From Emiliania huxleyi CCMP1516 (lineage: Eukaryota): a stretch of 64,000 nucleotides of DNA. Where the stretch lies: the NCBI RefSeq assembly GCF_000372725.1, contig NW_005201144.1:1-64000 (forward strand), given 5' to 3'. This document shows, piece by piece, positions 21,884 through 64,000 of this stretch; the stretch's first letter is position 1; the number at the start of each line of letters is the position of its first letter. Below the pieces are notes generated by a model, which was given only the letters and a program-made list of their open reading frames with translations, ran no database searches and was not told the origin of the DNA. The translations under genes and the position numbers were made by a program.

Positions 21884-22246
21884 CACCTCGATCGGGGCCG
21901 GCATGTACGTACTTCTGTTGTGGTGATGCCTGCGCCAGAAGCCGCAGAGCGGTCAGTGGTGGGGCGAGGCGGAGCCGGCCGCGGGCCGGTGCAAGGCGCC
22001 GGCCTCGCCTCGGCGCGCCGCACGGGCGTGCAGGTGAGTCACCAGGCAGCACAGAACACGTGACGGTTGTGAAAGCCCGGATGCTTGCTAGTACTTGAGA
22101 AGGCACCAACAACGCGGCAGGGCCCGTTTTGGCTGTCTGCGGAGATTCTGTCTTAGCACACACAGTGAGTCATTCGGAGTCATTCGATGGCCAGAGTGCG
22201 ATTGTGTGTGTGCGGGAGTTGGTTTGTCGGGAGGGAGGGGCAGGCT

Positions 22247-22393
22247 GCTCACCCACGTGCACCGGGCCAGTGCTTGCACTTTGAATGCCGTGGGGCTCCT
22301 GCCCGTGTCCGGGTGTGGAGATGCGAGGGTCGCCCCCCTTGTCAGCCCTTGCCCCACCACTTGTGTGTGTGGAGAAATCTAGGCTTACCTTAC
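22247..22393 (+). mobile_element. About 150-bp SINE-like/LINE 3'-end repeat with (CCTTA)n tail
   Basis: GCTCACCCACGTGCACCGGGCC...GCACTTTGAATGCC...GTGTGTGTGGAGAA...CTTACCTTAC; related copies at 25250, 35722, 36390 (partial) and 36710. Confidence 0.65.
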
Positions 22394-22445
22394 TCGAGTA
22401 GGTGTGAAAGAAGACGTGTGTCGCGCGCCTTGCACCTGAGGATTC

Positions 22446-24049: not shown

Positions 24050-26041
24050 ATGTTCATGTGGCCGCGGCCCCTCTCTGACGAGGCCGCCCCATCGGCTCTC
24101 TTTAATTTGTGGCTCGTGTTTTGCTACACCCTCTTCCTGCCGAGCGTCGCGTCACACACCTCTGCCTCAGCAGTGGCGCTTGCAGCCCACAGGCCTCCGA
24201 CCACACTCATCGCGGCGCAGCGACTCCACGCGACGGCGCTCGCCGTGGCGCCGGTGCCAGGCGTGCGCTCCTCTCACGCGCCAACGCTTCTTCAGCCAAG
24301 ATCGGGTCGCAACTTTCGACCGGTGGACTTTGGAGCGGACCCAACAGGCAGGCTCGACTCGACGAGAGCGCTGCAGGCAGCGTTGAACGCGCTCCTGTCG
24401 GTGGGTAGTCTCAAAACTGCCGCCTCGAAACTGGCATCAAACATCACAGACCTCGGCGGCGCGACGCTGGAGCTCGAGGGCGAGTTCCTCATTTCGCAGC
24501 CGCTTCTCGTCCCAGCCTTCTTTGGGAACTTCTACATCATGCGCGGCACGCTGCGCGCCTCCTCGTCGTTCCCCCGCAACGGTGTGCTCCTCACCGTTGG
24601 CAGTGTCGACTGCCATCCGTTCGACGCGCGCGGGCTCCCCGATGGCCAGAAGAGCTGCAATGAGGTGCCAGACTAACCATTCGTAGTGCCCTCTGAACGG
24701 CGGTAGTGCCCCATGAACGGCGGTGCCCTCTGGACCAGTAGAGTTGACTCCTCTCTAGTTTGTCAACGTGCGGGAGGTCTACTTTGACGCGGCGCACGTC
24801 GCTGCGGGCGGCCTGCTCGTGGCGTGCACGATGGGCGCCACCGTGGCCGACGCCTTTTTCTATGGCTTCCGCCGCTTCGGCCTGCGCCTGGCGGGCGGGC
24901 ACGAGGGGCTCATAACGCAGGTGTGGGCGGCGGAGTACTTCTGGTCGGAGGCGCTGCTGCCGTCGGTGATCGTCGCGAGGCTCAACTCGACGTCGGTGGG
25001 CGTTGTCGTCGACTCGATCGACAACGTGCTTTCCGACGTCATCGTGTTCGCGTACACGCAGACGGGCGTGACGGTCGACGGCTGCTGCAACACGCTGAGC
25101 GGAGTGCACGTGTGGAATAATGTGCGGGCTGCCGCGTCCGCGGTCGCGCGCTCCCCGCCCTACCGCGTTGTCTGACGCGTTGTCTGGCGCGCGCGCAGGC
25201 GCTCGCGGGCGGCATCGTCGTCGGCGGCTCCGTCTTCTCTCCGCAGGTTGCTCACCCACGTGCACCGGGCCTCGCACTTTGAATGCCGGGCCTGCTCCTG
25301 CCTGTCCGGGTGTGTGGAGATGCGAGGGCTGCCCGGCCCCTGCCTCACCACCCACTTACGGTGTGTGAAGTAGAAGTTTACTTGACCTCAGACCTCTCTC
25401 CGCAGACGCGGCTGCGCAGCTGCTACCTGGACTTCAACCACCTGATCGTGCACGCGCCTTCGAGCCTCACGGTCGAGTCCTCCTTCTTCCTCAACGCGCA
25501 CGTCGAGCTGCGCGCGGCGGCGGAGGGCGCGGAGCAGGCCGAGGGCGACGGCGGGGCGTCGCTCGACAACGTGATCATCCGCGACAATCTCTTCGCCGCA
25601 AAGAGCACGGGCGGCTACGCGTCGGTGAAGCTCAGCGGCTCGTTCGTTGGCGGCCGGCGCACACTCATCGACGACTCGGCGAGCAGCGTGCAGGACGCGG
25701 CGTGGCCGGCGCTGCAGCCTCCGCGCCTCAAGGCGACGCGCGCGTCGAGGACGCTCCACCTCGTCGGCGCGCGGCGGTGGGCGTTCGACTTTGCCGACGA
25801 GCTGCTGCTGCCGGAGATCGACCGCCTCTCCTACACGCTCGTCACCGACGACGAGAGCAGTTTCGTCCGCCACGTCGCCCGCCGACCCATCGGCACCACC
25901 GCCATCGTCGAGACCGACGCCAACGTCAGCGCCACTGTCACCATCTCCGTGGTCCAGGCGGACGGCGGCAGCATGTGGCCGCGCCGCGCGCCACCGGCGC
26001 AGCAGCACCGGCCGGAGCGAGACGGCCGGGCTCGAACTTAG
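24050..26041 (+). CDS. QRT3-like pectin-lyase-fold (polygalacturonase-like) protein, multi-exon
   Basis: FGADPTGRLDSTRALQAA, ITDLGGATLELEGEFLISQPL, GTLRASSSFP, GGHEGLI, DNVLSDVIVF, GVHVWN and PQTRLRSCYLDF match plant QRT3-type proteins. Confidence 0.75.
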
Positions 26042-27500
26042 ACGGCACGCTGCGTGGTCGGAGCCGAGTCATGAACTTGGACGAACACGCCTGCCAGGCG
26101 CGGTTAAAATTAAGGAGTAATCCTGGGAAGGGTAGGCGCCACTGCACTCCCTCAGGTAGGTCACCCACCAACACTCAGGTCAAGCAAAGCCGCCTCCATT
26201 CCACCCACCAACAGACTAGGGTCTAGAGCCGTGTATCGCGTATCGGCTATGAATCGCCCGAACGAAGTCGAAGATCGCGATACGCGAACACGAGGGGAGA
26301 GCGGGGTCGGTTGGTCGACCTCGCGTGCGCATATGCTACGAGTCCCAAGTATGCATATGCCGCTCGATATGCCGCGCACGCGCAGCCACCCTCTCCTCCC
26401 GATCCCGAGTCTAGCTAGATGCTTCCAGCGTACGTTTGCGCATGTCCCTGGCGTTGAAGAGGAGTTTGACGTGGAGCCTTGGCTATGGCGCCGGGCGATG
26501 GCCGATGCGTGAGGGCTGGTCGGAGCTGGGGGACTGGTCGCGCCGAGAGGAGATGGAGGCGGCGGAGGAGGAGACGCGGCGGGGCGATTGTTCTGATGCC
26601 TATGGGCGTCAGATCTCTCAGCTAGGCGAATTCTTCTGCGACTACTCGATGCTGCGGAAGGGGCATGCGCCGTCTGCGAATCACCCGCCTGGATAGGTCG
26701 CTCGCGCGACCTCTCCTGGATGCGCAAGGGGCCCATTCGGGGTGACGCGGAGGGAGGCGCTGTTGGCGGCGGAGGAGGTGAAGGAGGCCGCGCGGGCGGC
26801 GGAGAAGGCGGCGCGGGCGGCGGAGGGAAGGGCGGCGGCGGCGGCCGGGCGGCAGTCCCAACGCCGGCTGAAGGGTTCGTCCTCGCGGGGCGGGGTGCGC
26901 ACTGGTCTGCGCGCCGCGAGGATGAGGAGCCTGAGCCAGGGGAGGATTGGAAGGGGGGGCGAGGCCGGGGGAGTACGTCGGCCTCGTCGACGGCCCAACG
27001 CAGGGTAAATGTAAGCCGGATGGCTCACAGGCCACCTCTTGCGCACCGACTGACCGATCTACCGCACTGGACACTTCCGCCCCCTCGCTCCCAACCCATC
27101 CACCTCGCCGAGCCCGAGATATGCCGAGGTGCGCGATCTCGGGCCGCGCCGCGCAATCTCGGGCGATCTCGCGCTCTATCTCGGGCGATCTCGGGGCCGC
27201 GCCGCGCTATCTCGGGCGATCTCGGAGCGTCGCTCGCGCGGCGGCACACCTGCTCAAAAAAGGAAGGGCCCGGTTGGAGCCACGGGGCTCACGTGCTCGC
27301 TCGGGGCGCCGCCTCACTCTGCGCCACTTTTGAGGCGTTGAGCCCGCGACGGTGAGGCGGCGCCCCGCGCGGCGCGTTCCTCGCCCTCCACGCCGACCCC
27401 TACGCGCACCGCTCATCTCTTTTTTACAGGCAGCCCCCCCCCCCCCCCCGAAAGAATTGCGCGCTGATATTGCGGCGCGCCAGAAATTCACACGAACACA

Positions 27501-28748: not shown

Positions 28749-30722
28749 CTATGAGCGCTGGGCCGCGTCCGCCGCCTTCCTTGCAGCGGCCGCCTTGGCC
28801 CTCGCAGCGGCCGCGCGCTTCGCCTTTGCGGCGGCCATCGCCGCCTCAGCTGCCGCAAGTGCCGCGGCCGCGGCTTCCTCCTCGGCCGCGGCTTCCTCCT
28901 CCTCCGCCTCTGCCTCCTCCTCCTCTTCCTCAGCCTCCTCGGCCAAGCGCTCCGCCTCGACCATCTCAGCTAAAGCCGCTGCCTGGCTCTCCGCCGTGAT
29001 GCCGAGCCGGATCCTCTCCTCGTGACAACTTTCGAGAAGCCTGATCAATCTCGCCTCCTCGGCCTTCTTCGCGGCCTCGGCTGCGGCTGCCTCCGACGGC
29101 ACCTCGGCACCCTCTGATGGCGCCTCTGCACCCTCCGCCGGCGCCTCGGGCTCCTGCGACGGCCCAGCGCCGCCGCTCCCGCCGCCCTTCTTCTTCTTCT
29201 TGCCCTTCTTGCCCTTGCCGCGCTTCTCCGCCTCGACCTCCGCCAGCAGCTCGTCGGCGTGCCGCGCCGCCTCCGCCTCCGCCGCCGCCCTCTCCGCCGC
29301 CCTCTCCGCCGCCTCCGCAGCCCTCGCCGCCTCCTTCGCCACCGCCTCGGCCGCCCTCTGGGCCGCCGCATGCTCCTCGAGGGCGCGCACGCACTCGGCG
29401 TTGCCCTCCTCCTTGGCAATCTGCAGCGCTGTGCGTCCAGCCGCCGAGCGCAGTTCCATGTCGGCGCCCGCCCGCAGCAGGCAGAGTACGGCCGCGGGGT
29501 GGTCCCAGACAGCGGCGAACATCAGCGCGGTGTTGCCGGCATTGTCCTGCCTGTTGATCTCCGCGCCGTGATGCAGCAGCAGCTCGGACACCCGCTCGTG
29601 GCCCAGGAGGGCGGCGAACATCAGCGCGGTGCTGCCGACGCTGTTCCGAAGGTCGATCGAAGCGCCACGCTGCAGCAGCGCCGCGGCCAGCCGCTCGTGG
29701 CCGTAGTAGGCGGCGTACATCAGGAGCGTAATGCCACTCGCACCCTCATCAGCGAAAGTCGCGTCCACCCGCCCGCCGCTGTCGAGCCACACCAGCACCG
29801 CCGCCTCGTCGCCTTGCTTAGCCACCTCCACGATCTCCTCGGGGACGGCGTCCTCGCCCGTTCCGCTCTCCACGCCGCCGGAAGAGGACGCGGCAGTTGA
29901 TGCCGCTGCCCCCTTGCCCGAGGCGGCATCGCCGTCCGCCCCTGCGCCGCCTGCGCCGACGTCCTCGGGAACAGGCCCGCTGCTGCCGCCCGAAGCGCTG
30001 CCTGCCCCCGCGCCGCCCGCCTCGACCGCCGCCGCGTCCCGCCTCTCCGCCGCCACCTCGCCGAGAAACGTCTTGACAGCGGCAACGCACTCGGTGTGAC
30101 CCTTCTCCTTGGCGATCTGCAGCGCCGTCTTGCCCGCCGCAGTGCGCAGCGCCATGTCTGCGCCCGCCCGCAACAACTGGAGCACGACGGCAGAACGGCC
30201 GTGGAAGGCGGCGCTCACGAGCGCAGTGTAGCCGTCGCTGTCCTGCAGGTCGACCTCTGCCCCGTGCCGCAAAAGCAGCTCGACCATGCTCTCGTTCCCC
30301 CTGAGGGCTGCGCACAGCAGCGCGGTGCAACCGACGCTGCTCTGCAGGTTTATCTCCGCCCCGTGCCGCAGCAGCGTCTCGACCACCTGCACGTGGCCGA
30401 TGGTGGCGGCGGCAATCAGCGCTGTAGTGCCGACGCTGTCTTGCGCGTTCGGCTTCGCGCCCCGCTTCAGCAGAAGTTCGATCAGCTGCTTGTGACCGTG
30501 TCCGGCGGCGATCAGCTGGAGCGTACAGCCACTCACACCGCGACGCACGCACGTCGCATCAACCCGCCCGTCCCCGGCGAGCCACGTCTGCACCACGCCC
30601 GCCTTGCCGTCCGCCGCCGCGGCTTGGATCTTTTTCGGCAGCGCGAGCGGCGCAGCCTGTGGCGTCGTCGAAGCGTGTCCGCGCCGGGAGGTGGCCGAGC
30701 CAGCTTTTGGTCGGCCAGGCAT
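28749..30722 (-). CDS. Ankyrin-repeat protein (paralog of 1475-3709), no U-box visible
   Basis: Two WL..GGRVDAT...G.TL ankyrin blocks, the KGKKGKKKKKGG...AGPSQE linker, and an E/A-rich coiled coil. Confidence 0.85.
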   Translation of the reverse strand: MPGRPKAGSATSRRGHASTTPQAAPLALPKKIQAAAADGKAGVVQTWLAGDGRVDATCVRRGVSGCTLQLIAAGHGHKQLIELLLKRGAKPNAQDSVGTTALIAAATIGHVQVVETLLRHGAEINLQSSVGCTALLCAALRGNESMVELLLRHGAEVDLQDSDGYTALVSAAFHGRSAVVLQLLRAGADMALRTAAGKTALQIAKEKGHTECVAAVKTFLGEVAAERRDAAAVEAGGAGAGSASGGSSGPVPEDVGAGGAGADGDAASGKGAAASTAASSSGGVESGTGEDAVPEEIVEVAKQGDEAAVLVWLDSGGRVDATFADEGASGITLLMYAAYYGHERLAAALLQRGASIDLRNSVGSTALMFAALLGHERVSELLLHHGAEINRQDNAGNTALMFAAVWDHPAAVLCLLRAGADMELRSAAGRTALQIAKEEGNAECVRALEEHAAAQRAAEAVAKEAARAAEAAERAAERAAAEAEAARHADELLAEVEAEKRGKGKKGKKKKKGGGSGGAGPSQEPEAPAEGAEAPSEGAEVPSEAAAAEAAKKAEEARLIRLLESCHEERIRLGITAESQAAALAEMVEAERLAEEAEEEEEEAEAEEEEAAAEEEAAAAALAAAEAAMAAAKAKRAAAARAKAAAARKAADAAQRS

Positions 30723-31311
30723 GGGAGCGCTCGTCGCAAAGAGAGAGCACACGGACGTTGCCGTTCCCAGGTTGTGGGGGCGCGGGAATAAAGAAATTAC
30801 ACCTAGTTTCATGCAACCAAGATGGCGATGTGTAGGAACTGCACTCAAGTCCGACCAAGCCTGGCTGTTCTTCGCCCTTACTGCGCCCCCCTGTTCGCGC
30901 GCGCGCGAGGCGTGCAGACAGGATTGCCAGGTGAGAACGAATGGCGCGGTTCACACGCCTTCGGGAGAGAGAGAGATTTTTAGCAATACCAAACAACTCT
31001 AACACTCACACGTTTTGTTTTGTCGCCTTCGTCATTTGTTCACCCAAGAGTTTGATTCGTTCGCGAAGGAAGGCCCACAGGAGCCAGCGGCACCCACCCA
31101 CACACACGCAAGACGCACCACCCAAGAAGAGACTCTCTCGCACCCACGAAACATCAAGGCATTTTTGCGCCGCCGTGGGGGTAGGGTGAACTCCTTAGGG
31201 CATTTCCCGTTTTTCACACACGGTCCGCCTATTTTGGCGCGTGTCTTCGGTGTTTTCCTCGCCGTTTCTCCGCCGAGCCCGACCACCGAGTCCCTACTTC
31301 TTCCTTTTTCC

Positions 31312-33541
31312 ATGTGCCGCGCAGCCGACCTCGAGAAGGGACTGCCGCCCAAGGTGCGCTCCCACCAGCCCAGACGCCTCCCTCTCTCTCCTCTCCTCAC
31401 GCGCTCGCCCTCGCACAGCTCCAACACATGGATCCTCGCCATCGTGATCGTCGCGCCTTGCACTGGCTCTCACGCACTCGGCCCTCTCACAGGCGCGCTC
31501 CAACACATGGATCATCGCCATCGTGATCGTCACGCTTGCACTGGCTCTCGGCCTCGGTGTCGGTCTCGGTGTCGGACTGAACAAGAAGGAGGACTCCACG
31601 ATCTCCACGTACTCCACCATCGCCGACGTCGCCTGCGGCACGAACGCCCCGGCGCAGTTCTCCACGCTCTGTACCGCGATCGCTGCGTCTCCCACGGTCC
31701 TCGCCGCGCTCTCCGCCGCGGGCACCTACACGGTCTTTGCTCCGAACAACGACGCGTTTGATGCCCTTCCAGACGGAGCGCTCGCCGACCTGCTCAAGCC
31801 CGAGAACCAGCCCGCACTCACAAACCTCCTGCTGAAGCACACCCTCGGGTCCAAGGTGCCGGCGGCGGACGCGCTGAACCTCGTCAACGAGCCTGTCGAC
31901 ACCCTGGCCTCCACCAACAGCATCGCGGAGAAGATCGTTGTCGACGGCAACGGCACCGCCGGGCCCGTCACCATCACGCCCGCCATCGTTGGAGGATCTG
32001 CTGAGGTGGTCGCCCCCAACCTCGCCGAGGCCGACAACGGCAATAGCGTGATCCACGAGATCAACAAGGTGATCGCGACGTGGTCCTACATGTCCATCGC
32101 CCAGGTCGCCTGCGACCCTAGCCTCGACGCCACCGTCGGCACGCTCTGCGCCGCGGTCGGAGCGTCTTCTGCGGTGGCTGACGCGCTCTCGAACTCCGGG
32201 TCCTACACCGTCTTTGCCCCAACGAACGGCGCGTTTGCTGCCCTCGACCAGACCTTCCTCCAAAGCGTGCTCGCGGACGATGCAACCGTCACCGCCCTCC
32301 TCCAGAAGCACGCCCTCGGCTCCGTGGTCCCAGCGTCAGTCGCGCTGACGCTCGAGAACTCCGCCCAAACCACGCTGAACGGAGAGGACATCACGGTCGA
32401 CGGCTCGACCGGCTCCGTCCTCGTCACGCCCAGTATCCTCGGCGGCCCTTCCACCGTGATCTCCGCCGACGTCCAGACCAGCAACGGCGTGATCCACGTC
32501 GTGGACAAGGTGCTCGCTCTGGCGGCCCTGGTGCCTCCCCCGTCTCCGCCACCGCCGGTGCCTCCCCCGTCTTCGCCGCCGCCGCCCACCATCGCCGACG
32601 TCGCCTGCGGCACGAACGCCCCGGCGCAGTTCTCCACGCTCTGTGCCGCGATCGCTGCGTCTCCCACGGTCCTCGCCGCGCTCTCCGCCGCGGGCACCTA
32701 CACGGTCTTTGCTCCGAACAACGACGCGTTTGATGCCCTTCCAGACGGAGCGCTCGCCGACCTGCTCAAGCCCGAGAACCAGCCCGCACTCACAAACCTC
32801 CTGCTGAAGCACACCCTCGGGTCCAAGGTGCCGGCGGCGGACGCGCTGAACCTCGTCAACGAGCCTGTCGACACCCTGGCCTCCACCAACAGCATCGCGG
32901 AGAAGATCGTTGTCGACGGCAACGGCACCGCCGGGCCCGTCACCATCACGCCCGCCATCGTTGGAGGATCTGCTGAGGTGGTCGCCCCCAACCTCGCCGA
33001 GGCCGACAACGGTGGTAGCGTGATCCACGAGATCAACAAGGTGATCGCGACGTGGTCCTACATGTCCATCGCCCAGGTCGCCTGCGACCCTAGCCTCGAC
33101 GCCACCGTCGGCACGCTCTGCGCCGCGGTCGGAGCGTCTTCTGCGGTGGCTGACGCGCTCTCGAACTCCGGGTCCTACACCGTCTTTGCCCCAACGAACG
33201 GCGCGTTTGCTGCCCTCGACCAGACCTTCCTCCAAAGCGTGCTCGCGGACGATGCAACCGTCACCGCCCTCCTCCAGAAGCACGCCCTCGGCTCCGAGGT
33301 CCCAGCGTCAGTCGCGCTGACGCTCGAGAACTCCGCCCAAACCACGCTGAACGGAGAGGACATCACGGTCGACGGCTCGACCGGCTCCGTCCTCGTCACG
33401 CCCAGTATCCTCGGCGGCCCTTCCACCGTGATCTCCGCCGACGTCCAGACCAGCAACGGCGTGATCCACGTCGTGGACAAGGTGCTCGCTCTGGCGGCCC
33501 TGGTGCCTCCCCCGTCTCCGCCGCCGCCGGCGGCCCCCTGA
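31312..33541 (+). CDS. Membrane-anchored fasciclin (FAS1) protein with 4 FAS1 domains
   Basis: YTVFAPNNDAF/YTVFAPTNGAF and VIHEINKV/NGVIHVVDKVL motifs, four in total; N-terminal TM segment; intron 31354-31492. Confidence 0.92.
31614..33530 (+). repeat. Near-identical 972-bp tandem duplication within the fasciclin gene
   Basis: Unit starts at 31614 and 32586; only a few substitutions seen. Confidence 0.9.
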
Positions 33542-33983
33542 TCGACGTGTGTGCTCTTTGAGGAGGGGGTGGGGGAGAAGCGCTAGTATGACCTCGGCGA
33601 ATAGCTCGAAACGGAGGAGGCGGCGCCGAGGAGTCCATTATCGTACTCCCACCGGTCGCATGAACGTCTGTAGACGAGCACGTACTGTTGCGGGGCGTGG
33701 GTTGAGGATTGTCAAGCGCGCGTGCGTTACCCAAGAGCCAAGTCCGTCCGTCCGGAGCCCCCTCCATGTGTCTGCGTGCGCTCCACAGTGTGCGTTGTCT
33801 ATTCCGGACGCTGACTCCGTGACTGAGCGGACTGCTGTGTACTACATACTTGTTGTAGATTCAAACAGGCGCGGCCACTCTCCACGATGCACGCGCGCGT
33901 ACACAGTGATCAGTGTGCACAATCCGGCTCGCTCGTTGGGACCCGCGCGGCCCCCCCTCCGGCCGCCCGACAGGGAATTGGTC

Positions 33984-34930
33984 TCACACCTCCACGTCGT
34001 CCGGCAGCGAACCGGGAGGGGCCTCGCCGATCGGCACCACCGAGTCGACGGTGCCGTCGCCCGTCGAGTCAATGGCCACCGAGTCGGGCACCTTGAAAGG
34101 GAATGGTGGGGTGGGGTGAGGTGGGAGGGGGAGAGGTACATTCCTCCACGCGCTAGTGGGTGGGGCAGGGGCCAGGCTATCCCTCTCACACCTTGTCAAT
34201 TGTGGTGTCGAGCAGCTGGCCCGGCGTCAGCCGCGTGAAGCAGCGCTCGCGAATGCGGCGCGCCTCCCCCCCCTCCATCTCCTTCGAGCCCGTGAAAGCG
34301 TCGTAGTACTTCCTCATCTCGCGCACGTCGTCCGGAGAGCCGAGCAGCACAGGCACCCGCTGGTGCACGCTCTGCGGGACCAGGTCCATGATGCGCGTCT
34401 TGCCGGTCAAGGCGAGGCCACCCGCCTGCAGGAAGGTTCCAGGAATGCCATCGGCGCCGCCTCGTACAGCAGGCGAAGCTTGCCGTTTGCATTCTTTGAG
34501 TCTGCGGGGTAGCCAAAGATGCCTCCGTAGAGCAGCGTCCGGTGCACGTCGCCAACCACCGACCCAATGTACCTCGCGGTGTAGCGCTCGCCGCTCTCTC
34601 CGTTGCCGTCCTGCAGGTCCTCGATGTACGTCCGCAGCGGCGCGTCCCACGTTGAGCGAGTAGATCGCCTCGTTGAGCGAGTAGATCGCGCCTCGCTGCG
34701 GCACCGCCACGTTCGGTTGCGTCAGTACACACTCGCCGATGTGCGGGTCAAGCGTGAAGATCTGCACGCCGGCACCGAGCGTGAGGGCGAAGAAGGTGGA
34801 GGAGGAGTAGAGGCAGTAGCCCGACGCGAGCCCGACGAGCGACGAGCCCGGCTGCAGTGTCGCTGCCATGCACTCCTCAGAGACGGCGTAGCGTAGCGAC
34901 GCCTTGACGATCGAGATGAGCGCGCTCGAG
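33984..34930 (-). pseudogene. FBP: Fructose-1,6-bisphosphatase (class I) pseudogene
   Basis: [23 protein letters not shown] and [13 protein letters not shown] motifs; N-terminal DPLDGS region absent; frameshifting duplications at 34650-34689 and about 34428-34445. Confidence 0.8.
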
Positions 34931-35155: not shown

Positions 35156-37799
35156 ATGCGGCGCTCGAGCAGCTCGCGATCTGACTTGAACAGCCTCCCG
35201 GACACGCCCGAATCGCCCAAGAGGCTGCCAGAGGACCCTGAGCCGCCCAGCTCCGGCGTGGGAGTCCCGCCCGAGCAGCTTCATGGCGGCGACGGTGCTG
35301 TTGTGCACGAAGGAACGCAGCGAACGGGACGCGTGAGCACAGGCCGCTCGGGCAAGTCCAAGCGCGTGCTGCGCGCGGAGAGGCGGCTGCGCGCCGGAGC
35401 TGGGACGCCGCCCGACGGCGACCGGCTCGGCCGCGTCTCTCCCGGCGGCTTGTCGCCCGGCCGCCTCAGTGGCCGAGGGAGCCCCGTGTCGCCGATCGAG
35501 TCGGCGCTCGGCGAAGTCGGCAGGCTGTGGGGCGTCCTCCGCCAAGAGCTGGCACGCGAGACGCCGTACGTGCCGGGCCTCTCGATCCACACGCCGAAGC
35601 GGCGGTGGCAGCTGACCGCCGCTTCGCTCACCTTGCTCGGCGCCGCGAAGGCGGGCGACGCGCTGCGCATACGGCGGCTGCTCCGCAGGTCACACACACA
35701 CACGCACACACACACACACACCGCTCACCCACGCGCACTGGGCCTTGCACTTTGAATGCCGTGGGGCTCCTGTCGTTAGACGTGGAGACGCGAGGGTCGC
35801 CCCCCCCTTGCCCCACCACCTCGTGTGTGTGGAGAAGTTTACCTTACCTTACCTTACCTGCTCTGCAGGCACGGCGCGAAGCTGCCGACGGTCTTCGAGG
35901 TCGTCACCGAGGCGGTGGAGATGCAGCGGAGGCAGTCCTTCGCGCTGCGGCGGGGCGAGGCGTCGGTCGGCGGTGGAGGTGCGGTGACAGTGCCCCCGCG
36001 CGGCGCCATGAGCGAGCCGCTGGCACGTCGCGCCGTGCCGCCGCCGCCGCCGGCGGCAGGTGCGGCGGCAAGGGCGGCGGCAAGGGCGGCGGAAGGGGCG
36101 GCGGCAGGGGCGGCGGCAGGGGCGGCGGAAGGGGCGGCGGAAGGGGCGGCGGAGGAGGCTGCCGGCACTTCCGATCTTAGCACCGGGCTGAGCGCGCCGG
36201 CAGAGGCCGTGGTCATCTCTCCCGGCACCGCAGTCCCCCGGCCGCGCCCATATCTCCCCGGATCTCCCCAGATCTCGCCATGTGCCTCCCCACACACCTT
36301 GGGGCCAGATCTCGCCGTCCCTCCCGCAGGCTCGGAGCTTCTCCTCTCCTCCTCCTCTCCTCCTCCCCCCCTGCTCCCCCCTGCTCCCCCCTTGCCCCAC
36401 CGCCTCGCGTGTGTGTGGAGAAGTGCACCTTCCCTTCCCTCGCCTCAGGCCACGCCGAGATTGTCAGCTTGCTGCTCGAGGCGGGCGCGGAGCCGGACGC
36501 GCGGAGCCACGACGGCGTGAGTGGGGTCGTCCTCGCTGCCGAGCACGGGCATCTCGAGGTCATGGCGAGATCTGGCGAGACGGAGAGGCATGGCGCGATC
36601 GGGCGAGAGGGAGGACGATCGGCCGTAACTCCCGAGGCGAGGCACGAGAGTCGTCGGTTGAGCTAGGGAGCCTGGCGAGGGACGCCACCAGTCCTCGACA
36701 GACCTCTGGTACTCCACACTGTCCGTGCGCCGGGCGTCGCACTCTGACTTTGAATGTGCACTGGGGGGTGTTGCCTGCCTGCTCGACCTGCCTGTCTGGG
36801 AGTGGAGCCTTGCGAGAAGGCCCTTTGATCCCCCACCCCCTCGAGTGTGTGTGGAGGACGTTACCTCACCAGCCGAATCACCAGCCGAATCGCCACAGGT
36901 GGTGCGCCTCCTCGTCTCCGCCGGCGCGGAGGCGCTGTGCTGCTGCTCGGATGGCAACCTCGGGGAATCTCGGGGAATCTCGGGGAATCTCGGGGAATCT
37001 CGGGGAATAGGCGCTCTGCTGCTGCTCGGACGGCAGCACCGCGCTGCACCTCGCAAGCCGCGGCGGTCACCCGCAGGTCGTGTCGTATCTCCTCGGCGCG
37101 GGGTGCGCCGTCAACGCGACCGACCACGCGGGCCTCACGCCGCTGCTATGCGCGGCGGCGGCGCTGGAGACGGACGCGCACGTCGAGGTGATCCTGCGGC
37201 TGCTGCAGGAGGGCGCCGACCCCGACGCCAAGAGGCTCGACGACGACCTGTGCGCGCTGGAGCTGGTCGAGCTGGCGTCGCCCTTGACGCTGCTGCAGCA
37301 CCGCACCCCGTCCGGCGAGGCGGGCGGCGGTGCTGGGGTGGGCGGCGAGGCGGGCGGCAGCGAGAGCGGCGGTGGGGCGGGCGGTGAGGCGGGCGGCGGC
37401 GAGGAGGGCGGCGGTGGGGCGGGCGGCGGTGAGGAGGGCGGCGGTGGGGCGGGCGGCGGTGGGGCGGGCGGCGGTGGGGCGGGCGGCGGTGGGGCGGGCG
37501 GCGGCGCGGGCGGCAAAGAGCAGGGCGGCGAGGCGGGAGGTGGAGTCGGCGGCGGCGGCGGGCAGGCGATCGCGACGACGAGCGGCGATGCGGCGAGTGA
37601 AGCGGCACGTGAAGCGGCAGGTGAAGCGGCAAGCCGGAGGGTCAGGGCCGCGGCCAGCACTCGCCGGCAGCAGCGGGCGGCGAGGGTTGCGCTCGCGCTG
37701 GTCGCGGCGAGGAGCGCGCGCGCCGACCTCGGCGAGGGGCTGTGCAACTCCATCGCCCGCGCGCCCGTCGCGGCATTGGGGCATTGTTTGTTGAGCTGA
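35156..37799 (+). CDS. Multi-exon ankyrin-repeat protein
   Basis: Spliced GHAEIVSLLLEAGAEPD, DGSTALHLASRGGHPQVVSYLLGAG and GLTPLLCAA; 5' exon structure uncertain. Confidence 0.65.
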
Positions 37800-38911
37800 T
37801 CCATTGGGGCATTGTTTGTTGAGCTGATCGACGCCTGATAGTTTTGACACGCACGCATGTCATGGTGGAGGGAGGGTCAGGCGTGCCTTAGCTCTAAGCT
37901 ACATGCGTACAGCCGCGTGGATGCCCTCTCTGTCTACGTTATGGGCTGACGGTGACGCGTCACACAGACAATAACATGACGACACGTGTACGGCGCTAGG
38001 GAACCGCGTCGCCCCCGGAGCCGGTCGTCGACCCCCTTATCCTTTGGGTTTGGCCGCATTGGCGTTGGGTAAAGCGTAGCGTTTAAGATTAAGTGAGTGT
38101 GTGAGACGGTTGGTTAGAGCGCGAGGATTGATGTCGTTCGGGTGTGACGCGCTACCGGTACCGCTAGCCCCGCGAGCGTGGAGTGTACTGAAGTTCCTAC
38201 TTACTCATACTCACTAGGGGGTGGACAGCGCCCCAAAATCCACCACTGTGGGATTTCGCGCAATCGCTTGACTCTGTAGAGCTCGCCTATCCCTGCGGTG
38301 AGCGCTGTGGTCGCCGCAGACTGGCTCCGACTTGACGGGCGCATGGAGACACGTGATGCCTCCATGCGCCCATCGAGTCAAAATCGACATGCGAGGCGAC
38401 TTTGGCCCGCCAGAGGGATAGGCGGCGTTTTGCTTTTGGGCGACAACAGCGCTGTGACCGCGAAGTGGCGGTGGACATGCTCCCATGTTGCCGACGCGGC
38501 GCCGGAGTGGCCGGCACTGCTCGCCGTGACCACGACGGCTACTCTGATACTCCGGGCCGACCCGTCCTACCCGACGGTGGCACTCTTCCACGTCTCGCTC
38601 ACGCTGAGAAAAATTCTGAAACGGCGTGCAGCAGAGTCACCGACGAGTCGGTCCGCGTGCCTCCTCGTGTCCCGTAAAACTCACTTTGGCCTCACTGAGC
38701 AAGCCCTCAATCCTGTAGTTGTAAAGAATTTAAAGAAAAACAAATGGAAGCGATGGATTATCCAAACCCGGGCGCATCCGCCCAAAAACGTCCGCCGCTC
38801 GCGACTACGCCCCGCGGCCGATTCGTGTCCCCCCAGTGCTTTGCCGGCGGTGACGTGGGCGCTGGCGTGTAAAGTCAGCGGCAAGATACGTGTGCAGCCG
38901 CTGGTTGCGCC

Positions 38912-39700
38912 ATGCAAGTGCTCGCCGTAGCGCAGCTGAGTCCAACGCGGGCGACTCTGTCACCCAGCGATGTGACGCCAGTTACCCTCCCCGACGCCGT
39001 CGAGGGCACCGCGGACACGGACAGCGACGGCATCCCCGACGACCTCGACCCCGACTCGGACGGCGACGGCATCATGGACGCCGAGGAGGGCACCGTCGAC
39101 ACGGACGGCGACGGCATCCCCGACGCCAAGGAGTCCAACACCGCCGACGCCGATGGCGACAACATCCCAGACGCGATTGAGTCTGCGACGGCAGACGAAG
39201 ACAGCGACGGCGTGTCCAACGCGGCGGACACCGACTCGGACGGCGACGGCATCCCGGATGCCGTCGAGGGCACGGCGGACACGGACAGCGACGGCATCCC
39301 CGACGACCTCGACCCCGACTCGGACGGCGATGGCATCATGGACGCCGAGGAGGGCACCGTCGACACGGACGCGCATAGCGGAGGCATAACCTTTGCAGAG
39401 GACGACTCTGACAGCGACGGCATCCCCGACGCAACAGAGGGCACCGGCGACGCCGATGGCGACAACATCCCCGACGCGATGGAGTCCAATACCGCCGACA
39501 CCGACAGCGACGGCGTCCCCAACGCGGCGGACACCGACTCGGACGGCGACGGCATCCCCGACGCCGTCGAGGGCACGGCGGACACGGACAGCGACGGCAT
39601 CCCCGACGACCTCGACCCCGACTCGGACGGCGACGGCATCATGGACGCCGAGGAGGGCACCGTCGACACGGACGGCGACGCCATCCCCGACGCCATGGTG
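38912..39700 (+). CDS. Asp-rich DxDxDG (thrombospondin type-3-like) calcium-binding repeat protein or fragment
   Basis: Tandem DTDSDGIPDDLDPDSDGDGIMDAEEG units. Confidence 0.65.
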
Positions 39701-39804
39701 GGCTGGCGCGTGCGACTGGTGCACGCTCTGGGTGGCGCCGATTTCTGCCCCTCGCCCGTCCCCCGGTCTCCTCGCCCGCTCTCAGCTGAGCAGTCTCCCC
39801 TCAG

Positions 39805-40504
39805 TTAGACGCGGGCCTGCGGCAGAACAAGACGAGGAGGACGAGCACCACGGCTTTGCCTCCCCATCGGGGTTGCGGCAGAAATTGTGGCCGCCGAGCC
39901 CAGCCTTGGGGTAGTTGTACACGGTCTTGTCGTGCGTGTGTGGCCAGAGCCGAGACCAGTACTGACACGTGACCCCGTCCTCCGTTGTGCTGACCTCTCC
40001 CCGGTAGTCCGAGCCGTCGGAAAGGGTGTAACACTCACCTGTGAAGGAGCCGCAGCCGTCAAATGCAAGCCGAGGGGTGGGTGCAAATGGCGGTGGGCAC
40101 CGTAGCCGTGGAAGCAGTCGTTCTCGTCCCAGTCGCACTCTTCGTTGTTGCAGGTCTCATCGCACTCCCCGTCACCGACGTACGATGGGTCGCAACCTTG
40201 TGCGCAGTAGTTGCTCCAAAAGGACTGGAGTTCGTAATACCTGCGGCGTGGAGAGGGCCACTTCACAAAACGTGCGTGCGGGTGGATCGAGACCCTGCGT
40301 CACGCATCTCTGGCGCATCTAGACCGAGCACGATTCGTCGATGTAGCGCTCGAGCCCATCACTCCCATACGCTGCGTCATCGATGGCATAAGCCGGGGTA
40401 GCGCTCTCGGTCACGGCAGTGCTATCGTCGAGTGAGGCGTCGCCTGCAGCCACCCTGAGCACTCCGAGGAGTGCCAGCCATGGCAAGGTGCGGAGCCGTC
40501 GCAT
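39805..40504 (-). CDS. Secreted LNR (Notch) plus kringle domain protein, kringle truncated
   Basis: Signal peptide MRRLRTLPWLALLGVL; LNR CAQGC...GDGECDETCNNEECDWDENDC; kringle YRG...CQYW...HNFCRNPDGEAKPWC. Confidence 0.75.
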
Positions 40505-48875: not shown

Positions 48876-51800
48876 CCCCTAAACGGCTGTGGTTCCCATA
48901 TGGGAACTTCGCCCAATTCTGTGAAAGAGAAAACCGGTCGCCTAAGGAGCGAAGTCGGCCGATCCGGCGACCCGCTTTCGCTTGGCAGACGGCCCGGGTG
49001 CTGTGCCGCCTACCACCAGCCGCTTGACTCCGGAGTCGCATCTCGGAGAGAGAATCTAAGATTCCTTCAGATTCCCTAGATTCCCGCAGCACCCTTCGGT
49101 AGCGAATGAAGCGCAAGGCAAAACAACGACCTGCGCCCGATCCTCGCTCTGGGCTTGTTGGGAGGTACCTTGGCGTGCCGTGCAGCTTCTTCAACGTAAA
49201 CGTCGAGGGTGCTCGCTACTTGGCGCGAGTCAAGAGCTTGCACAAGTCTCAAAAGTCCATGCTCTGGATCAAGTTCAACCAGGGCGGCTACGGCGAGGAC
49301 GCCTTCGCGCCTCTGGCAGTGGTGAAGCAGTGGCTCATATCCGACGACGAGGCGCTCGATCCCAAGTCAGACTGGTACGAGGACCCAGACGAGAGCGACG
49401 ACGACTCGGACGTGGAGGATGGGGACGAGGCGGAGGGTGGTGCAAACGCGAGGCGAGCGCCAGCCGCACGCCGGCGTGTCGATGAGCCTCGCGGCTCGGT
49501 CAAAGGCAGCCGATGGCAGCCGGCGGAGGCGCGGAAAACGCCCCACGCCGTCGACAACATCGTCTGGAGAAAGGCCACCGGCGCCGTCCCAAGCCACAAG
49601 CCAAAGGTCTTCGCGCGGAAGCTGCCACCCGGTGTGTCGGAGGGGCTGCAGCAGCCGCTGCCTAACCACGGACCGATCAATGTCGAGCTGTTCAACCGGC
49701 AGTGGGACATTCGATGCTGGGAGCTCGTCTCGAAATACAGCAAACAGCGCGTCCGCGACCTGAAGATTGGAACCGTGGACGCCGTCTCGCGCAAGCCGAA
49801 GATGAAGAATCGCGCCGACGGCAGCAAGGGGAAGCAGCGCAAGGCACCTTCTATGTCGGTGCCCTTCCTGATCCGACTGCACGTCATCATCACGGCGATG
49901 TCCATTTGCCGCCTGCCCGCCCGCAAGTACTACTGGCGCAAGGGCAAGTTCGTCGGCTGCCCCGGCATCTCTGTCATCATGTCGGAGAACGACTTTGCGC
50001 AGGGCATCCGCTGCCTCTACGACTGCGATCCATCGAAGCTGGTTCCCCGTGGCGACATGACGCAGCCGCCGCCTGTGGGCTACGACAAGATGGCGAAGAC
50101 GTCCGAGCTGAACGAGCTCGTGATGGAGAACACGCTCAACGCGGTGTGCCCGAAGAAGACGCTGTCGGACGATGAGGCGTCGGCCGAGTGGCGGGGCAAG
50201 AACGGCGAGGGCGTCGTGGTCTCCTTCAACAAGGACAAGCCAGCCAAGTGGGCGCAGCGCAACCAGTGCTTCAACGGCCTCGACGGCTCGCGTGTGGTGT
50301 GGCACGTCCTCAACTGCCCTCGGCGTGTGGCGGCGGAGCACGGCGAGACGTATAAGTCGACGCTTGGCCTCGCCGCGAAGCTGCACGCAAAGTACGGCGA
50401 GGGCTTCGTGATTGGCCAGGACTCGCTGTACAACTCGCCGGTGGTGGTCGTCGACGGGGCGAAGAAGTTCAAATTCAACTTCTTCGGCACCGCCGGGTGG
50501 AACCGCCGCGGCATGGTCGAGGACGCCGACGAGCCGGCGGACACGCGCGGGTCGTGCGTCTCCTACTACGCGACGGTTGACGGCATCCCGCTCACGGCGA
50601 CGTACATGCGCGACAACAAGATCGTCCGGTTCTTGTCGTCGGCGCACGGCGTGCCCACCGCGGTCAACGGCAGCAAGAAACCGCGCTGGAATAAGTCCGA
50701 ACGCAAGTACGAGGAGGTTTACATGCCGCCTGTCAAGTCCAACTACGATGCGGGCAAGGTGGGCACCGACCTGTTCGGCCAGTACATGGAGCTGCTGGAC
50801 ACTACGTTCAAGTCTTTTCACCCGTGGATGGTCCACCACCTTTGGCTGTGGTTCGGATGTTTTGTCAACGTGCATTGCTGGCGAAACAGGTTCATCGATG
50901 AGGGCGTCCGTAGGCTCGCCGGTGCGAAAAAGACGACGCTCATCGAAGACACGTTGCAGACGATGGAGGAGCTGCTTCAGATGGCGGACCGGCTAGAGCG
51001 GGAGGGGGCCGCTCGCTCAAAGAAGCGGAAGAGCAGGCCCGACCCGCAGGCGCCGGTGCGCAAGTCGCCACGGCGTGATCCGGTCGTCAGCCGCTTGGGT
51101 TCACCGACCCGCCACGTGCCCGTCACGTTCACTGAGAAGGGCAGGTGCAGGTGGTGCCGCAAGCTGATCTACTCCGGGTGCGGCCACCCTGGCTGCGGCC
51201 ACATGCACGAAGGCACGTGCTGGATGAAGGCCCACTCGAACGACCCGAAGATCCGTGCGAAGCTGAAGGCGCTGTCCTTCCAGCCAGAGATCGCCGATGG
51301 CACACAGGCGCGACGCGCCCCGCGATAGAGAGACCGTCACAATCCCGCTCTGCGCCTTCGGTGGCAGGCGGTGGCAAGGGAATGGGGAGACGATACGCCG
51401 TCCAATCCGGCAGAGAGTTGTCTTTCGGCAGCACGGGGGGTGAGAGCGTTTGGCGTGGTCGATGGTGCACCGCCGTCACGGTCACACGCACACACACGCC
51501 GCGCGCGCACACCACACACACACACACCCATCCTGATCGCGCCGTGCGCTTGGGGGGCCCTCAGGTGTGCATCCGCAAGGTGAAGCGGACGCGCAAGCCC
51601 AAGCGGAAGTTGCGCTACAACGAGGAGGAGGGCGGCGCCGGGGCCGACGCCGACGCCGAGGAGGAGGACGACGACGGTGATGGCGACGATGACGCTCCGG
51701 CTCCGCCCGCCAAGCGCCGCAGCACCCGCGCGCAGCAGCAGCGCCAGGGCGCGCGGTGAGACCTCTCGCCGACGCTTGAACCGGCTTTGCTGCACTCTGC

Positions 51801-52507: not shown

Positions 52508-55500
52508 ATGCTGCTCTCAACCGGCGGACTCGACGGGCTCGCCGCCCTCGCAGCCGCCGTGCAACAGCAGCGCGCACACTACACTGCGCCGCCCGCTGAC
52601 GAGCGACTCGCTGCACTCGACTTGTTGGGCGACCAGCCGCTCGTCGATAAGCGTCCCCTTGAGGACGGCCAGCCGCCGCCCGAGGCCAAGCACCCCCGCG
52701 CTCCCAAGGCCCTCCCGCCGAAGGCCCTCCCGCCGGGATGGACGGTCCAGCGGCGCAAGGCGGTGGCGCGCTCGTACAACGTTTTCCACGGGCCGAATGG
52801 GGAGCGCGCCGTCTCCATCGCCGACGCGTGGCGCAAGGACCAGGGCATTCCTCCGTCACCGCCGGCGCCGCGGCCGCCGCCGCCACCGGCCGTAGCATCC
52901 GGAGCGGGACGGGAGCGGGAGCCTGGCGACGGCGGCGAGCCGCCCCGGAAGCGGCGCTCGGGAGGGCGCGGAGGCACCCGCTCGGGTGGAGGGGTGGTGT
53001 GGGAGGAGTGCACCGAGGTGGGCAAACCGCCGCCGCGCGCAGCCTCCGCCTCCGCCGCCACCTCGGTGCGGGCAGCTCTCTCCGTCAGCGGCGGCGGCGG
53101 CGTGTCGCTCACACTTCGCGTGTGCTGCGCCAGCCCGAAGGCGCTCTGACCCTCCCCCCCCCCCCGCCGCCGCCGCCGCCGCCGCGGCCATCCTCGCCGC
53201 CACCACCTCCTCCACCACCGTCGCCCTCATCGCCCCCACGGCCTCACCGCCCATTCGGCCCTCACCTCACCCCTTCGCCGCTCTCGCCCTCACCGCTCTC
53301 TCCGCCGCCCTCGCCCTCGCCGCCCGCAGGCGGCCGCGGCGGCGGCGAGGAGCAACCGGCAGAGCCGGCAGCTGGCGGCGCTGCAAGACTACCTCCACAA
53401 GGGCCGAGCCGACAAGTGCGCCAACGAGTCCCTCGCCTCCGTCGCTGACCAGATTGCAGAGAAGCGGCGCCCCCCCCCTCAAACCTGCCGCCGCCTCCTC
53501 CTCCCCGCCCCTCCTCCTCCTCCCCCGTCCGCCTCTGCAACCTCGCCAGCGCGCCTCCTCCTCCTCCTCTCCCTCCTCCTCCCATGCGGCCTCCCTTCNN
53601 NNNNNNNNNNNNNNNNNNNNNNNNNNNNNNNNNNNNNNNNNNNNNNNNNNNNNNNNNNNNNNNNNNNNNNNNNNNNNNNNNNNNNNNNNNNNNNNNNNCC
53701 CCCCCCCCCCATCCCCCCCCTCGCCTCCCCAGCAGGCGCGGCGGCACGGCCATCCAGTGGGGGTGCGTCTGCGCGGGAGGCGTGCTACGCGGCGGTGCCG
53801 AGCTGCAGTGCCGCTCGTGCGCCCTCACCTTCCACTCCAAGTGCGAGCGGCTCGACTACACACCCGCGGAGCTCGCGCGCTTCGCCGCCGACAAGACGTT
53901 CCTTTGCTCGTCGTGCCAGCAGCAGGAGCTGCAGCGCGCGGGGTACGACCCGTCGGCCGGCCGCTTCGTCTGGCAGTGCCAGTCGTGCACGCGCTGCTTC
54001 GAGGCGGAGGAGCACCGCACCGCCGAGCGGCACGGCGCTCGCTGTGCTGCAGAGCTGGAGCGCCGCGAGTGGTCCTGCGTCTGCGCCGACCCGAGGGCGC
54101 GCAAGGCCCTCGCGACAGAGTGTGCCGACTGCGGCCGCTGGTTCCACTACGGGTGCAAGGCGCAGTACCGCGACGGCGGCGCGAAGGACCGCTGCGTCGC
54201 GTGCCAGGACGCGGCCGACGACGCCGACGCCGCGGTGGCGGTGGCTAGCTGCTCCAAGACGTGCCAGAGATCTGAGGTAGGAACATAGGAGAGCGGACTG
54301 GGACACGGAGGTGAGCTAGTGCGCGCCGACGTGGCTACTCTCGTGCGCCGGCTAGAGACGGCGAACCGAAGAGGGGACCGCCCCGTGTAGGCCATGGCCG
54401 CCGCGCCGCCGCCGCAGCACCGTCGCGCGACGGCCGCCGCCGCCGCCTCCGCGGTGGCGGTGGCGGTGCGCGGCCGCCAGCCGAGGGACGAGGCGGCGGC
54501 TGGCGGCGGAGGGGCTGGCGGCGGAGGGGCTGGCGGCGGAGGGGCCGGCGGTGCAAGGGGCGGCGGAGGGGGAGGCGGCGGAGGGGGGGGCGGGGCGGGC
54601 GGGTATGGGACGGAGGGGCGCTGCCCCCTCGCCGCGCTCGGGCACCGCGAGGTCGGGACGCTGGCGGACGGGCGGGTGGAGGTGCGGCCGTCCACGCTCG
54701 GCGATCTCCCCATCCCTCCCCATCTCTCCCCGTCTCTCCCCATCTCCCCCCATCTCTCCCCATCTCGGCGCATCTCTCCCCATCTCCCCCCATCTCTCCC
54801 CATCTCTCCCCATCTCTCCCCATCTCTCCCCGGGCCTCCCCGTCCCTCCCGGTGCGTCCCGGTGCGTGCGGATCCGTGCGCGTGGGTGCGCGTGCCTGCG
54901 GGTGCGGGCGTGCACGCGCGGCGAGGCGGCGGGGCTCGGCCTCTTTGCGCGCGAGCGCGTGCAGCCGGGCGAGGTGGTCTCGACGTACCACGGCTCGCTG
55001 CTGTACAAGGAGGAGATGGCGCCCGAGGCGCCCGCCCCTGCCGTCGTCCCCGGACACGTCCACGACGCGTCCACGACGCGGCCGCGACACGTCCAGGACA
55101 CGTCCCATGACACGTCGCCGCAGGCGGACGCCTCCTACATCGTCCGGCTGCCGAACGCGGGCGGCGCGCTCGTCAACGGCAAGCCGTACGCCGACGCCAT
55201 CCGCGCGAACCCCGCCAACCCGTCAGCGGACGGGTGCCACGTGCCGCTGGCCGGCGCAGCCGCGTGGGGCTTCGGCGCGGGCGCGATGGCCAACGACCCT
55301 CGCGACAAGCGGCGCACGAACGCGCTGCTCGCCTTCGTCAAGCCCGCCGCCGTCGGGAAGGCCGTCGCCGACCTCGCCGTCGTGCGGCCGGTGCTTCTCG
55401 CCACGCGGCAGATTGAGCCCGGCGAGGAGGTCTTCTACTCGTACGGCTCGAACAAGCCCTTCGAGCGGCTGCGGCAGGCGCTGCAGGCCGCGCAGCAAAA

Positions 55501-62942: not shown

Positions 62943-64000
62943 TCACTCTACATCAGAGTCATCACTTGCTCGTGCGGACACGTCTGCCGCCACGACGTCG
63001 AGCCAGCGCCTCGCGACGGCCGCCCACGTCTCGGAGCGCAGCGTCGGCGTGTCGACGGACGGCAGCGCGCCGCGGGCCTTCCACTCGAGCAGGATCTCGG
63101 CCGCCCTGGCCGCCGCCGCGCGCTGCGTGCTCGGCTCCGTCGGGTCGCCCTCGACGCGGAGGACGTAGTCCTTGCTCGGGTCGGAGAAGACGGCGACGCT
63201 CGAGGTGAGCGGCACGCAGCCGAGCATCGCGGCCTCGCGCACGGCGATGCAGTCGATCTCGGGCCAGTCGCCCACATAGTAGAGGAGCTGCGCGCGCGCC
63301 TTGGCGCGCAGCAGCTCCAGCTGCCCGACGCGGCCGTGGTCGACCACGCTCGGCCCAAAGCTCGCGAGGAGCGCCTTCATGCCGTCGCGCCACGCCGAGG
63401 CTGGGTGGAGCAGCTCGTGCGTGCGCCAGCCGTAGTACACGTGCAGCGTCGCGTCGGGCACGCGCGCCAGCAGCGCCGGCCAGCCGTGGCGCAGCATGTG
63501 CTCGAGGCCGCGGTCGTACGACGACGTGTACACCAGCCGCGGCGCGGCGGGGCGGGGCGCGCCGGCGTCGGCCTCGGCCGCTGGCGCCGCGGGCTGCCGC
63601 CGCTCGGCCTTGACTCTGGCGACCATATCTCCCCGCATCTCCCCGTCTCTCCCCGTCTCTCCCCATACCTCGGCCTTGACTCTGGCGACCAGCTCCTCGT
63701 CGACGCCGTTGGGGAGGACGCAGGCGGGCGTACCCGAGGCGACGGGCGGCAGGACGCCGCGCTGGAACTCGCTCTTGCACATGAGGCGGTCCACGCGCGC
63801 GAGGCGGCGCGGCGACATGTCGCGCCGCCGCGGCATGTCGTGCAGATCGAGCAGCACGAGCCGCGCGTCGAGGGGCTCGTCCAGCAGCTCGAGCGAGCGC
63901 CACGCGATGAGCGTGCCGAAGCTGTCGGACGGGTTGAAGGCCGCCACGTCCACGAGCCGCACGCCGCGCCACTCGCGCTCCGTCGCCGCCGCCGCCGCCG
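62943..64000 (-). CDS. GT-B fold glycosyltransferase (GT4-like), 3' part
   Basis: LVYTSSYDRGL and EIDCIAVREAAMLGCVPL (EX7E motif), PNGVD; intron 63603-63668. Confidence 0.85.
   Translation of the reverse strand, partial: AAAAATEREWRGVRLVDVAAFNPSDSFGTLIAWRSLELLDEPLDARLVLLDLHDMPRRRDMSPRRLARVDRLMCKSEFQRGVLPPVASGTPACVLPNGVDEELVARVKAEVWGETGRDGEMRGDMVARVKAERRQPAAPAAEADAGAPRPAAPRLVYTSSYDRGLEHMLRHGWPALLARVPDATLHVYYGWRTHELLHPASAWRDGMKALLASFGPSVVDHGRVGQLELLRAKARAQLLYYVGDWPEIDCIAVREAAMLGCVPLTSSVAVFSDPSKDYVLRVEGDPTEPSTQRAAAARAAEILLEWKARGALPSVDTPTLRSETWAAVARRWLDVVAADVSARASDDSDVE

Follow-up and report, generated by a model that had tools for sequence, protein, structure and literature searches.

Tandem genomic duplication of a segment containing AG|GY is one of the models proposed for intron gain. 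In Daphnia, introns have been gained by double-strand-break repair associated with short repeats (review PMC3488318; this and the other sources cited by PMC number were available in part, and what is said of them holds for those parts). Introners form families that are similar from end to end, often carry terminal inverted repeats (TIRs) and are flanked by target-site duplications (TSDs) of 3–9 bp (Gozashti et al. 2022, PMC9860276; 2025, PMC12130899). For Emiliania huxleyi, the 2022 screen, from which low-complexity families were filtered, reported five introner families with 653 elements and ambiguous or no TSDs (PMC9860276), and the 2025 survey reported three small families (PMC12130899). 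The Emiliania introner rows, in the parts available, give TSDs of 2–4 bp or none, by which these introners would differ from the inserts described here. Direct repeats of 4–30 bp near splice sites have been read as insertion scars (PMC11782384); these were hand-picked imperfect repeats with a mean of 11 bp at 213 introns, and the available part of that paper mentions neither haptophytes nor a repeat filler.

Short interstitial telomeric sequences (ITSs) are tracts inserted at a break, with a 1–6 nt register at the 3′ end at 78% of horse loci (Santagostino et al. 2020, PMC7215372). According to the available part of the same paper, a staggered-break duplication accompanies interstitial telomeric insertions in 3 of 66, no human ITS lies in an exon, and telomerase is implicated. 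Haptophyte telomeres consist of TTAGGG. In the coccolithophore Calcidiscus, interstitial TTAGGG tracts are pervasive and have been ascribed to rearrangement, and in Emiliania huxleyi, where donors are GC in 56–65% and GA in 4% of cases and retention is frequent, GC donors have been ascribed to the GC content of the genome; boundary duplications and intron gain go unmentioned in the available parts of both reports (PMC13518057 and PMC4028052, respectively).

The window analysed here, a stretch of 64,000 nucleotides, has a GC content of ~66%, and the named relatives found for it and for the TTAGGG-bearing loci, those of a window protein among them, are haptophytes (Phaeocystis, Emiliania paralogues, Prymnesium and Diacronema). 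Its source is likely an alga of the Emiliania/Gephyrocapsa type. An ankyrin-repeat gene on its forward strand includes a short coding exon (36899..36931, supported by translation and by RNA joints at both sides) and a last exon (37011..37799, 99% identical to protein P0016) that encodes ankyrin repeats followed by a Gly/Glu-rich tail and a stop, with a Pfam Ank match at 7e-14 downstream of the intron. Between them lies a GC-AG intron of 79 nt (36932..37010, forward strand) made of duplicated exon sequence and a repeat array alone. The left copy of the duplication (36930..36958) is mostly intronic and carries the AG|GC donor at 36932; the right copy (37009..37037) supplies the acceptor AG (37009-37010) and continues as exon. 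The two copies are identical at 26 of 29 positions. The filler between them (36959..37008) is an ATCTC-core 10-mer array of exactly five CTCGGGGAAT units, which accounts for 50 of the 79 intron bases. The third mismatch of the duplication, at 36957, is in register with the array, and 36953-36978 is 92% array-like; the duplication is thus perhaps 27 bp long and the filler perhaps 5.2 units, with a possible start at 36957. The direct repeat scores 21, while none of 600 cross-locus flank pairs reached a score of 14.

Excision of 36932-37010 yields VRLLVSAGAEALCCCSDGSTALHLASRGGH in translation, with canonical ankyrin spacing and the frame restored. The length of the intron is not a multiple of 3, and the unspliced sequence is frameshifted. 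A joint from 36929 to 37009, with seven ambiguous letters, was found in assembled contigs of two of the four runs, from two studies (X4, which is RNA by guess, and X7, which is RNA from a differently labelled organism); no such joint was listed among the contigs of the other two (X1 and X9). The seven ambiguous letters place the cut somewhere in the first 7 duplicated bases, and of those positions 36932 alone permits a G[TC]..AG cut. This stretch of 79 bases is a GC-AG intron that is spliced and that combines duplicated exon sequence with a repeat filler. The sequence-only reading had claimed this layout, namely a recurrence around five units, an excision of 36932-37010 that restores the ankyrin consensus, both splice sites drawn from the duplicated AG|GC and no transposon ends. 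All of this was borne out: the sequence and the RNA joint agree on the splice sites, and no terminal inverted repeats pair the ends of the focal insert. Ankyrin periodicity was ruled out as the source of the repeat, the offset being 79 rather than 99 and the RNA skipping the insert. Elsewhere in the window, three related ankyrin-repeat genes on the reverse strand (1475-3712, 7173-9470 and 28749-30950) have long uninterrupted ORFs, two of them with a U-box match.

The ATCTC-array pattern has 16 matches in the window against 0.02 expected, and a repeat-first scan outside coding repeats recovered five duplication-plus-10-mer cases among 14 window repeats. Boundary similarity of at least 10 was found for 7 of 13 window introns and for 4 of 156 cross-pairs; the set comprised four RNA-supported introns and nine called by eye, two of the 13 coordinates were 1–2 nt off, and overlapping adjacent introns inflate the background. 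On the forward strand, a predicted intron at 101..234 contains an ATCTC array and has a 5′ end that matches the downstream exon at 17 of the first 20 positions. A predicted GC-AG intron at 269..348 holds a decayed copy of the downstream exon plus GAGAT units, another at 495..665 a perfect 13-bp duplication with a non-array filler, and a predicted intron at 31354..31492 a copy of ~50 bp of its downstream exon. In a SET-domain gene (54681..54925, forward strand), a decayed 24-bp duplication (21/24) surrounds a long ATCTC array with a putative GA donor at 54703. On the reverse strand, a perfect 23-bp duplication with a 43-nt array (63603..63691) forms an in-frame insert of 66 nt for which a GT..AG solution exists; no splice joint for it was seen in the four runs, and coverage was unspliced in X8 and X2. 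The RNA-supported GT-AG intron next to the focal one (36559..36898, forward strand), which RNA shows both spliced and retained, is a counter-example, with a boundary repeat of only 4 nt (AGGT).

Two introns on the forward strand consist of a dispersed element with a GCACTTTGAATG core. One belongs to the same gene as the focal intron (35689..35868; 11/12 boundary direct repeat, RNA joins in X1, X7 and X9) and the other is predicted from sequence (25247..25405; perfect 11-bp boundary repeat). The element is ~160 bp long, ends in a (TTACC)n tail, has boundary repeats of 11–12 bp at these two sites and shows a very high summed RNA contig depth; it also occurs at 22240-22400, 36395-36449 and 36720-36898 and at metagenome loci L020, L057 and L110. 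It looks like a SINE-like element serving as an intron; Rfam gave no matches in the window, this element included. A second dispersed element, with CTAG..GAGAGGACAC motifs, lies near splice sites (18250-18330; L034, L065, L071, L087, L114, L122 and L133), and several arrays are inserted exactly at its end. A further dispersed repeat, at 26997-27267, contains an ATCTC array; its copies at L022 and L030 are 88–100% identical and differ in array content. The window also contains, on the forward strand, a 741-codon ORF with a DDE_Tnp_1_7 transposase match at 1.9e-11 (49103-51328), which we take to be piggyBac-like, a four-fasciclin-domain gene with a near-identical internal tandem duplication of ~970 bp (31448-33541), a 1085-codon PAS-domain ORF (56143-59400) and an ORF of Asp-rich TSP3-like repeats (38873-39808). 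A fructose-1,6-bisphosphatase copy on the reverse strand (33600-34900) differs from RNA contigs by 18–19 letters and 15 gaps, and is likely a decayed paralogue. Two non-coding regions (14100-16000 and 21450-21900) appear by eye to have an inverted arrangement (TGTAGAGC/GCTCTACA arrays and a MITE-like inverted repeat), and 53599-53698 is an assembly gap of 100 N.

A scan of metagenomes for ATCTC cores repeated four times at intervals of 10 bp returned at least 127 loci, of mixed species and with sampling tilted to young arrays; the focal unit CTCGGGGAAT is present in one of those listed. Among the 127 loci listed, 14 share DNA with the window, one of these being an array match, and 96 arrays were usable after 28 with short flanks, two of low GC and one duplicate had been dropped. 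A flanking direct repeat with a score of at least 14 was found for 41 of these 96 listed arrays, compared with none of 600 cross-pairs and 6 of 170 same-locus shifted pairs. At a score of at least 12 the figures were 49/96, 6/600 and 9/170, leaving 47 of the 96 below 12. Across many loci, boundary similarity thus lay far above the shuffled background, in support of the sequence-only reading. Among the listed loci, 45 duplication cases had a score of at least 12 within 35 nt of the array, and the copies mostly lay within 10 nt of it (left copy in 40/45, right copy in 38/45). Removal of seven nested, low-complexity or doubtful cases left 38 clean ones. In these, the duplication was 12–42 bp long (median 23; the search floor, a score of 12, would let shorter ones escape), close to the 13–30 bp predicted beforehand, and perfect in 17. 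Fillers measured 32–128 nt and were built from 14 different units. One unit, ATCTCCCCAT, occurred in 16 of the 38 cases with unrelated flanks, which indicates that the unit was not derived from local sequence. This class of insertions, duplication–filler–duplication, is real and widespread.

Evidence for an empty site came from one locus, L122, where other copies of the host dispersed element (L034, L065 and L087) lack the array and have the duplicated segment in a single copy; these sites are paralogous. Array length at one site differed between assemblies (P0264 and P0266 against L116), and the array at the L116 site was also found in independent protein records. Viral contigs, which gave 18 matches, were rejected as a related source: the eight that were viewed were AT-richer, phage-like, unrelated DNA.

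One of the two junctions between array and duplication tended to be in register with the repeat. At the 3′ end of the array (ATCTC strand), the duplication continued the repeat in register for at least 3 nt at 11 of 21 clean junctions, against 4.3% of 2610 simulated inserts, whereas the 5′ junction showed a weaker effect (3/14, against 4.7% simulated). In-register junctions clustered near AT|CTC, although other phases also occurred, and the right junction of the focal site showed no in-register overlap. Read on the opposite strand, this pattern would mean that a 3′ end primes the repeat.

A duplication-first search recovered the same layout, mostly 55–100 bp in size, with fillers made of TTAGGG, a hairpin, AT-rich sequence, an 11-mer or unique sequence. 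The hairpin-like filler (TTCACA..TGTGAA) was found between duplications of 20–36 bp (L024:750, L026:70, L033:776, L035, L090 and L145), and AT-rich fillers (TAATTAAT, ATCAATCGA), in a GC-rich genome, between duplications of 18–37 bp (L057:349, L059:147, L081:700, L109 and L130:477). The proposal that the filler is a 10–11 bp repeat thus held for the focal site and many loci, but not for these others. The filler was telomeric at loci such as L029, L046 and L144, unlike at the focal site (CTCGGGGAAT); the window has no TTAGGG filler, so that the loci with such fillers may belong to other species. Telomere-like tracts had a flanking repeat with a score of at least 10 in 10 of 26 cases, against 13 of 966 in the control, and in 7 of 23 once three tandem units had been removed by eye. 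At L060, L141 and L029, an exon fragment plus a telomere-like intron is present in several tandem copies, suggesting repeated duplication at one site. Where tracts of opposite orientation lay at most 16 nt apart, the TTAGGG/GAGAT (G) strand came first in eight cases and second in one, or seven to none without L028 (one of the eight) and L085 (the single opposite case), both of which look like other organisms. This is the order predicted by two-ended 3′ extension. For opposite tracts 41–120 nt apart the order was 4 versus 9, consistent with separate inserts. L046 reads duplication-TTAGGG-CCCTAA-duplication, and at L119 a single insert between duplications combines a tract of 10-mers with a telomeric one.

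AGG[TC] was present inside the duplication in 27 of the 38 clean cases, against 13.8 ± 2.7 in flanking controls. A crude codon model, trained on window ORFs and accepting G[TCA]..AG solutions, allowed 14 of the 45 array cases to be read as introns between two exons (nine GC and five GT, with lengths in all three frames), as well as 8 of the 24 cases with other fillers. The remaining cases were intronic, intergenic, overlapping existing splice sites (e.g. L120) or in exons too short for the test. The insertion process is therefore general and not specific to introns. Of the intron-generating system put forward in the sequence-only reading, the splicing of the focal intron stood; the restriction to introns did not, as many copies are non-coding or lie across existing splice sites. 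Mismatches in the intron copy were spread 7/8/7 over codon positions (7 synonymous, 15 non-synonymous), as neutral decay predicts. This spread ruled out that the duplicate had been copied from another allele or paralogue, at which the two synonymous mismatches of the focal duplication had hinted. In the window ORFs the ratio of AGGC to AGGT is 164:54, so donors derived from exons would be mostly GC; on the strength of this composition, GC donors may be linked to introns of this kind.

The reading that we favour, and consider probable, is that a single insertion at a staggered break in the DNA gave rise to the focal intron, through templated extension of 3′ overhangs that produced duplication, filler and duplication, and that the intron was retained because it could be spliced. 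Two nicks ~12–40 bp apart would create the 3′ overhangs. A polymerase would prime on a few matching bases and copy onto one or both of them a short repeat template (the ATCTC-type 10-mer, the telomeric repeat or one of a small number of further short sequences), and fill-in and joining would then give an insert of ~55–100 bp. Inserts would likely land anywhere. Those in exons would persist if the duplication held AG|G[CT], or if filler and duplication jointly formed splice sites, since splicing would then restore the original mRNA exactly; selection would keep the ones that splice out, and GC-rich exons would give them mostly GC donors. Anatomy, splicing of the focal intron, recurrence, junction register and enrichment of the splice motif are observed; the break and the direction of synthesis are inferred, and the anatomy suggests a recent gain of the intron. 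As to the polymerase, our preferred guess is a telomerase-like enzyme or a retroelement reverse transcriptase; none of the 35 window ORFs scanned contained a reverse transcriptase. We advance only tentatively the broader idea that haptophytes possess a telomerase-like reverse transcriptase activity which adds repeat DNA (TTAGGG, ATCTC-type 10-mers and a small number of other short templates) to the 3′ overhangs left by staggered breaks. A large share of their introns would then have been produced de novo without any transposon, and one process would account for the GC donors, for the 10-mers within introns and for the telomeric tracts at interstitial sites.

The main rival has the same geometry and differs in naming a transposon enzyme as the agent: non-LTR or Penelope-like machinery would insert short non-autonomous RNAs (tails of SINE-like elements or abundant RNAs of retained introns) by target-primed reverse transcription (TPRT), the duplication being a TSD of variable length and the head-to-head tracts a product of twin priming. 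Variable-length duplications are expected of TPRT (PMC8557442), although long duplications at Chlamys elements are not confirmed in the available part of that source; ~5% of classified introners are non-LTR, and one Pavlovales family matches Chlamys/Tx1 (PMC12130899). The GCACTTTGAATG element, with its boundary repeats, its tail and its RNA depth, and the recurrence of several non-telomeric fillers, fit such an origin. For the arrays, however, neither a parent element nor a fixed end common to the copies was seen, and their units and lengths vary; pure TTAGGG fillers arranged with the G strand first suggest a template of the telomerase type, and no reverse transcriptase was found among the window ORFs scanned, all of which makes us regard this rival as rather unlikely.

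Templated 3′ extension must also be weighed against DNA-templated repair, presumably of the polymerase theta type, or template switching in replication, both without an RNA template, in which a nascent strand would leave after the duplicated segment, copy an array elsewhere and re-anneal upstream by microhomology. Junction microhomology of 2–5 nt, the unique sequence in some fillers and the abundance of arrays as templates, given their 16 matches in the window, agree with this, but the strand asymmetry of the register, the G-first head-to-head order and the small filler repertoire are not predicted by it, and we judge it improbable. A two-step origin, in which an exon segment with AG|G was first plainly duplicated in tandem (or an older intron was already present) and a repeat was later seeded inside and expanded by slippage, seems very improbable to us: arrays abut both copies, share units across unrelated flanks and are in register with the end of the duplication, and nothing older than the duplication is found inside the focal intron. 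This holds even though array length varies between assemblies (P0264 and P0266 versus L116), many arrays have no detectable duplication, and the fructose-1,6-bisphosphatase copy has, at 34650-34689, a 21-bp tandem duplication that lacks any filler. Contigs from short-read metagenomes, with 17 of 38 duplications perfect, might raise the suspicion of misassembly around low-complexity arrays; yet the copies differ in the other 21 with the pattern of neutral decay, RNA skips exactly the focal insert and the L116-site array recurs in independent protein records, so that an artefact is hardly credible.

How introns originate without a transposon is a long-standing question, and here every base of one intron can be traced, in a layout that is readable at many loci and in a bloom alga that is likely cultured and heavily sequenced. 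It is likely that new introns are made by repeat-filling of staggered breaks rather than by ordinary transposons. If so, three oddities reported separately would have a single origin, namely the majority of GC donors, the intronic 10–11 bp repeats (on which the 2013 Emiliania genome paper is said to contain a statement) and the pervasive interstitial telomeric tracts, and introner surveys would miss a class by dropping low-complexity sequence. A literature search, which left aside the 2013 genome paper and covered the introner supplements in part, found no description of the duplication–filler layout, and term look-up in the available parts of PMC2784329 and of the Kao preprint returned nothing on it.

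The focal intron resembles gains by tandem duplication in that one duplicated AG|GY gives both donor and acceptor. It differs from them in that 50 of its 79 bases are foreign repeat; by itself, the duplication would not reach the length of an intron. Gains in Daphnia reportedly involve repeats of 5–12 bp, unique fillers and a few dozen loci, unlike the duplications of 12–42 bp and the small recurring set of fillers found here. The short repeats and the lack of transposon ends are common to both (PMC3488318). With telomeric insertions, the present inserts share a repeat tract at a break (a presumed one here), a register at the 3′ end (11/21 here) and a duplication (PMC7215372); they differ from the available description of those insertions in that about four in ten arrays are flanked by a duplication, non-telomeric 10-mers make up most of the fillers and introns that are spliced out are among the products. 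On the features compared, they appear to be members of neither the telomeric-insertion nor the Daphnia class. Replitrons, which have fixed terminal repeats and mostly no duplication, were ruled out. TIR- and MITE-type introners are set apart by their TIRs, which are absent from the focal insert, by the length of the duplication (12–42 bp in these inserts, 27–29 bp at the focal site) and by copies that are similar from end to end, as the present ones are not. The variable length of the duplication is a feature of TPRT insertions that is also seen here. What the present inserts have in common with introners is the creation of many new introns whose splice sites are co-opted from the target duplication and whose removal restores the mRNA.
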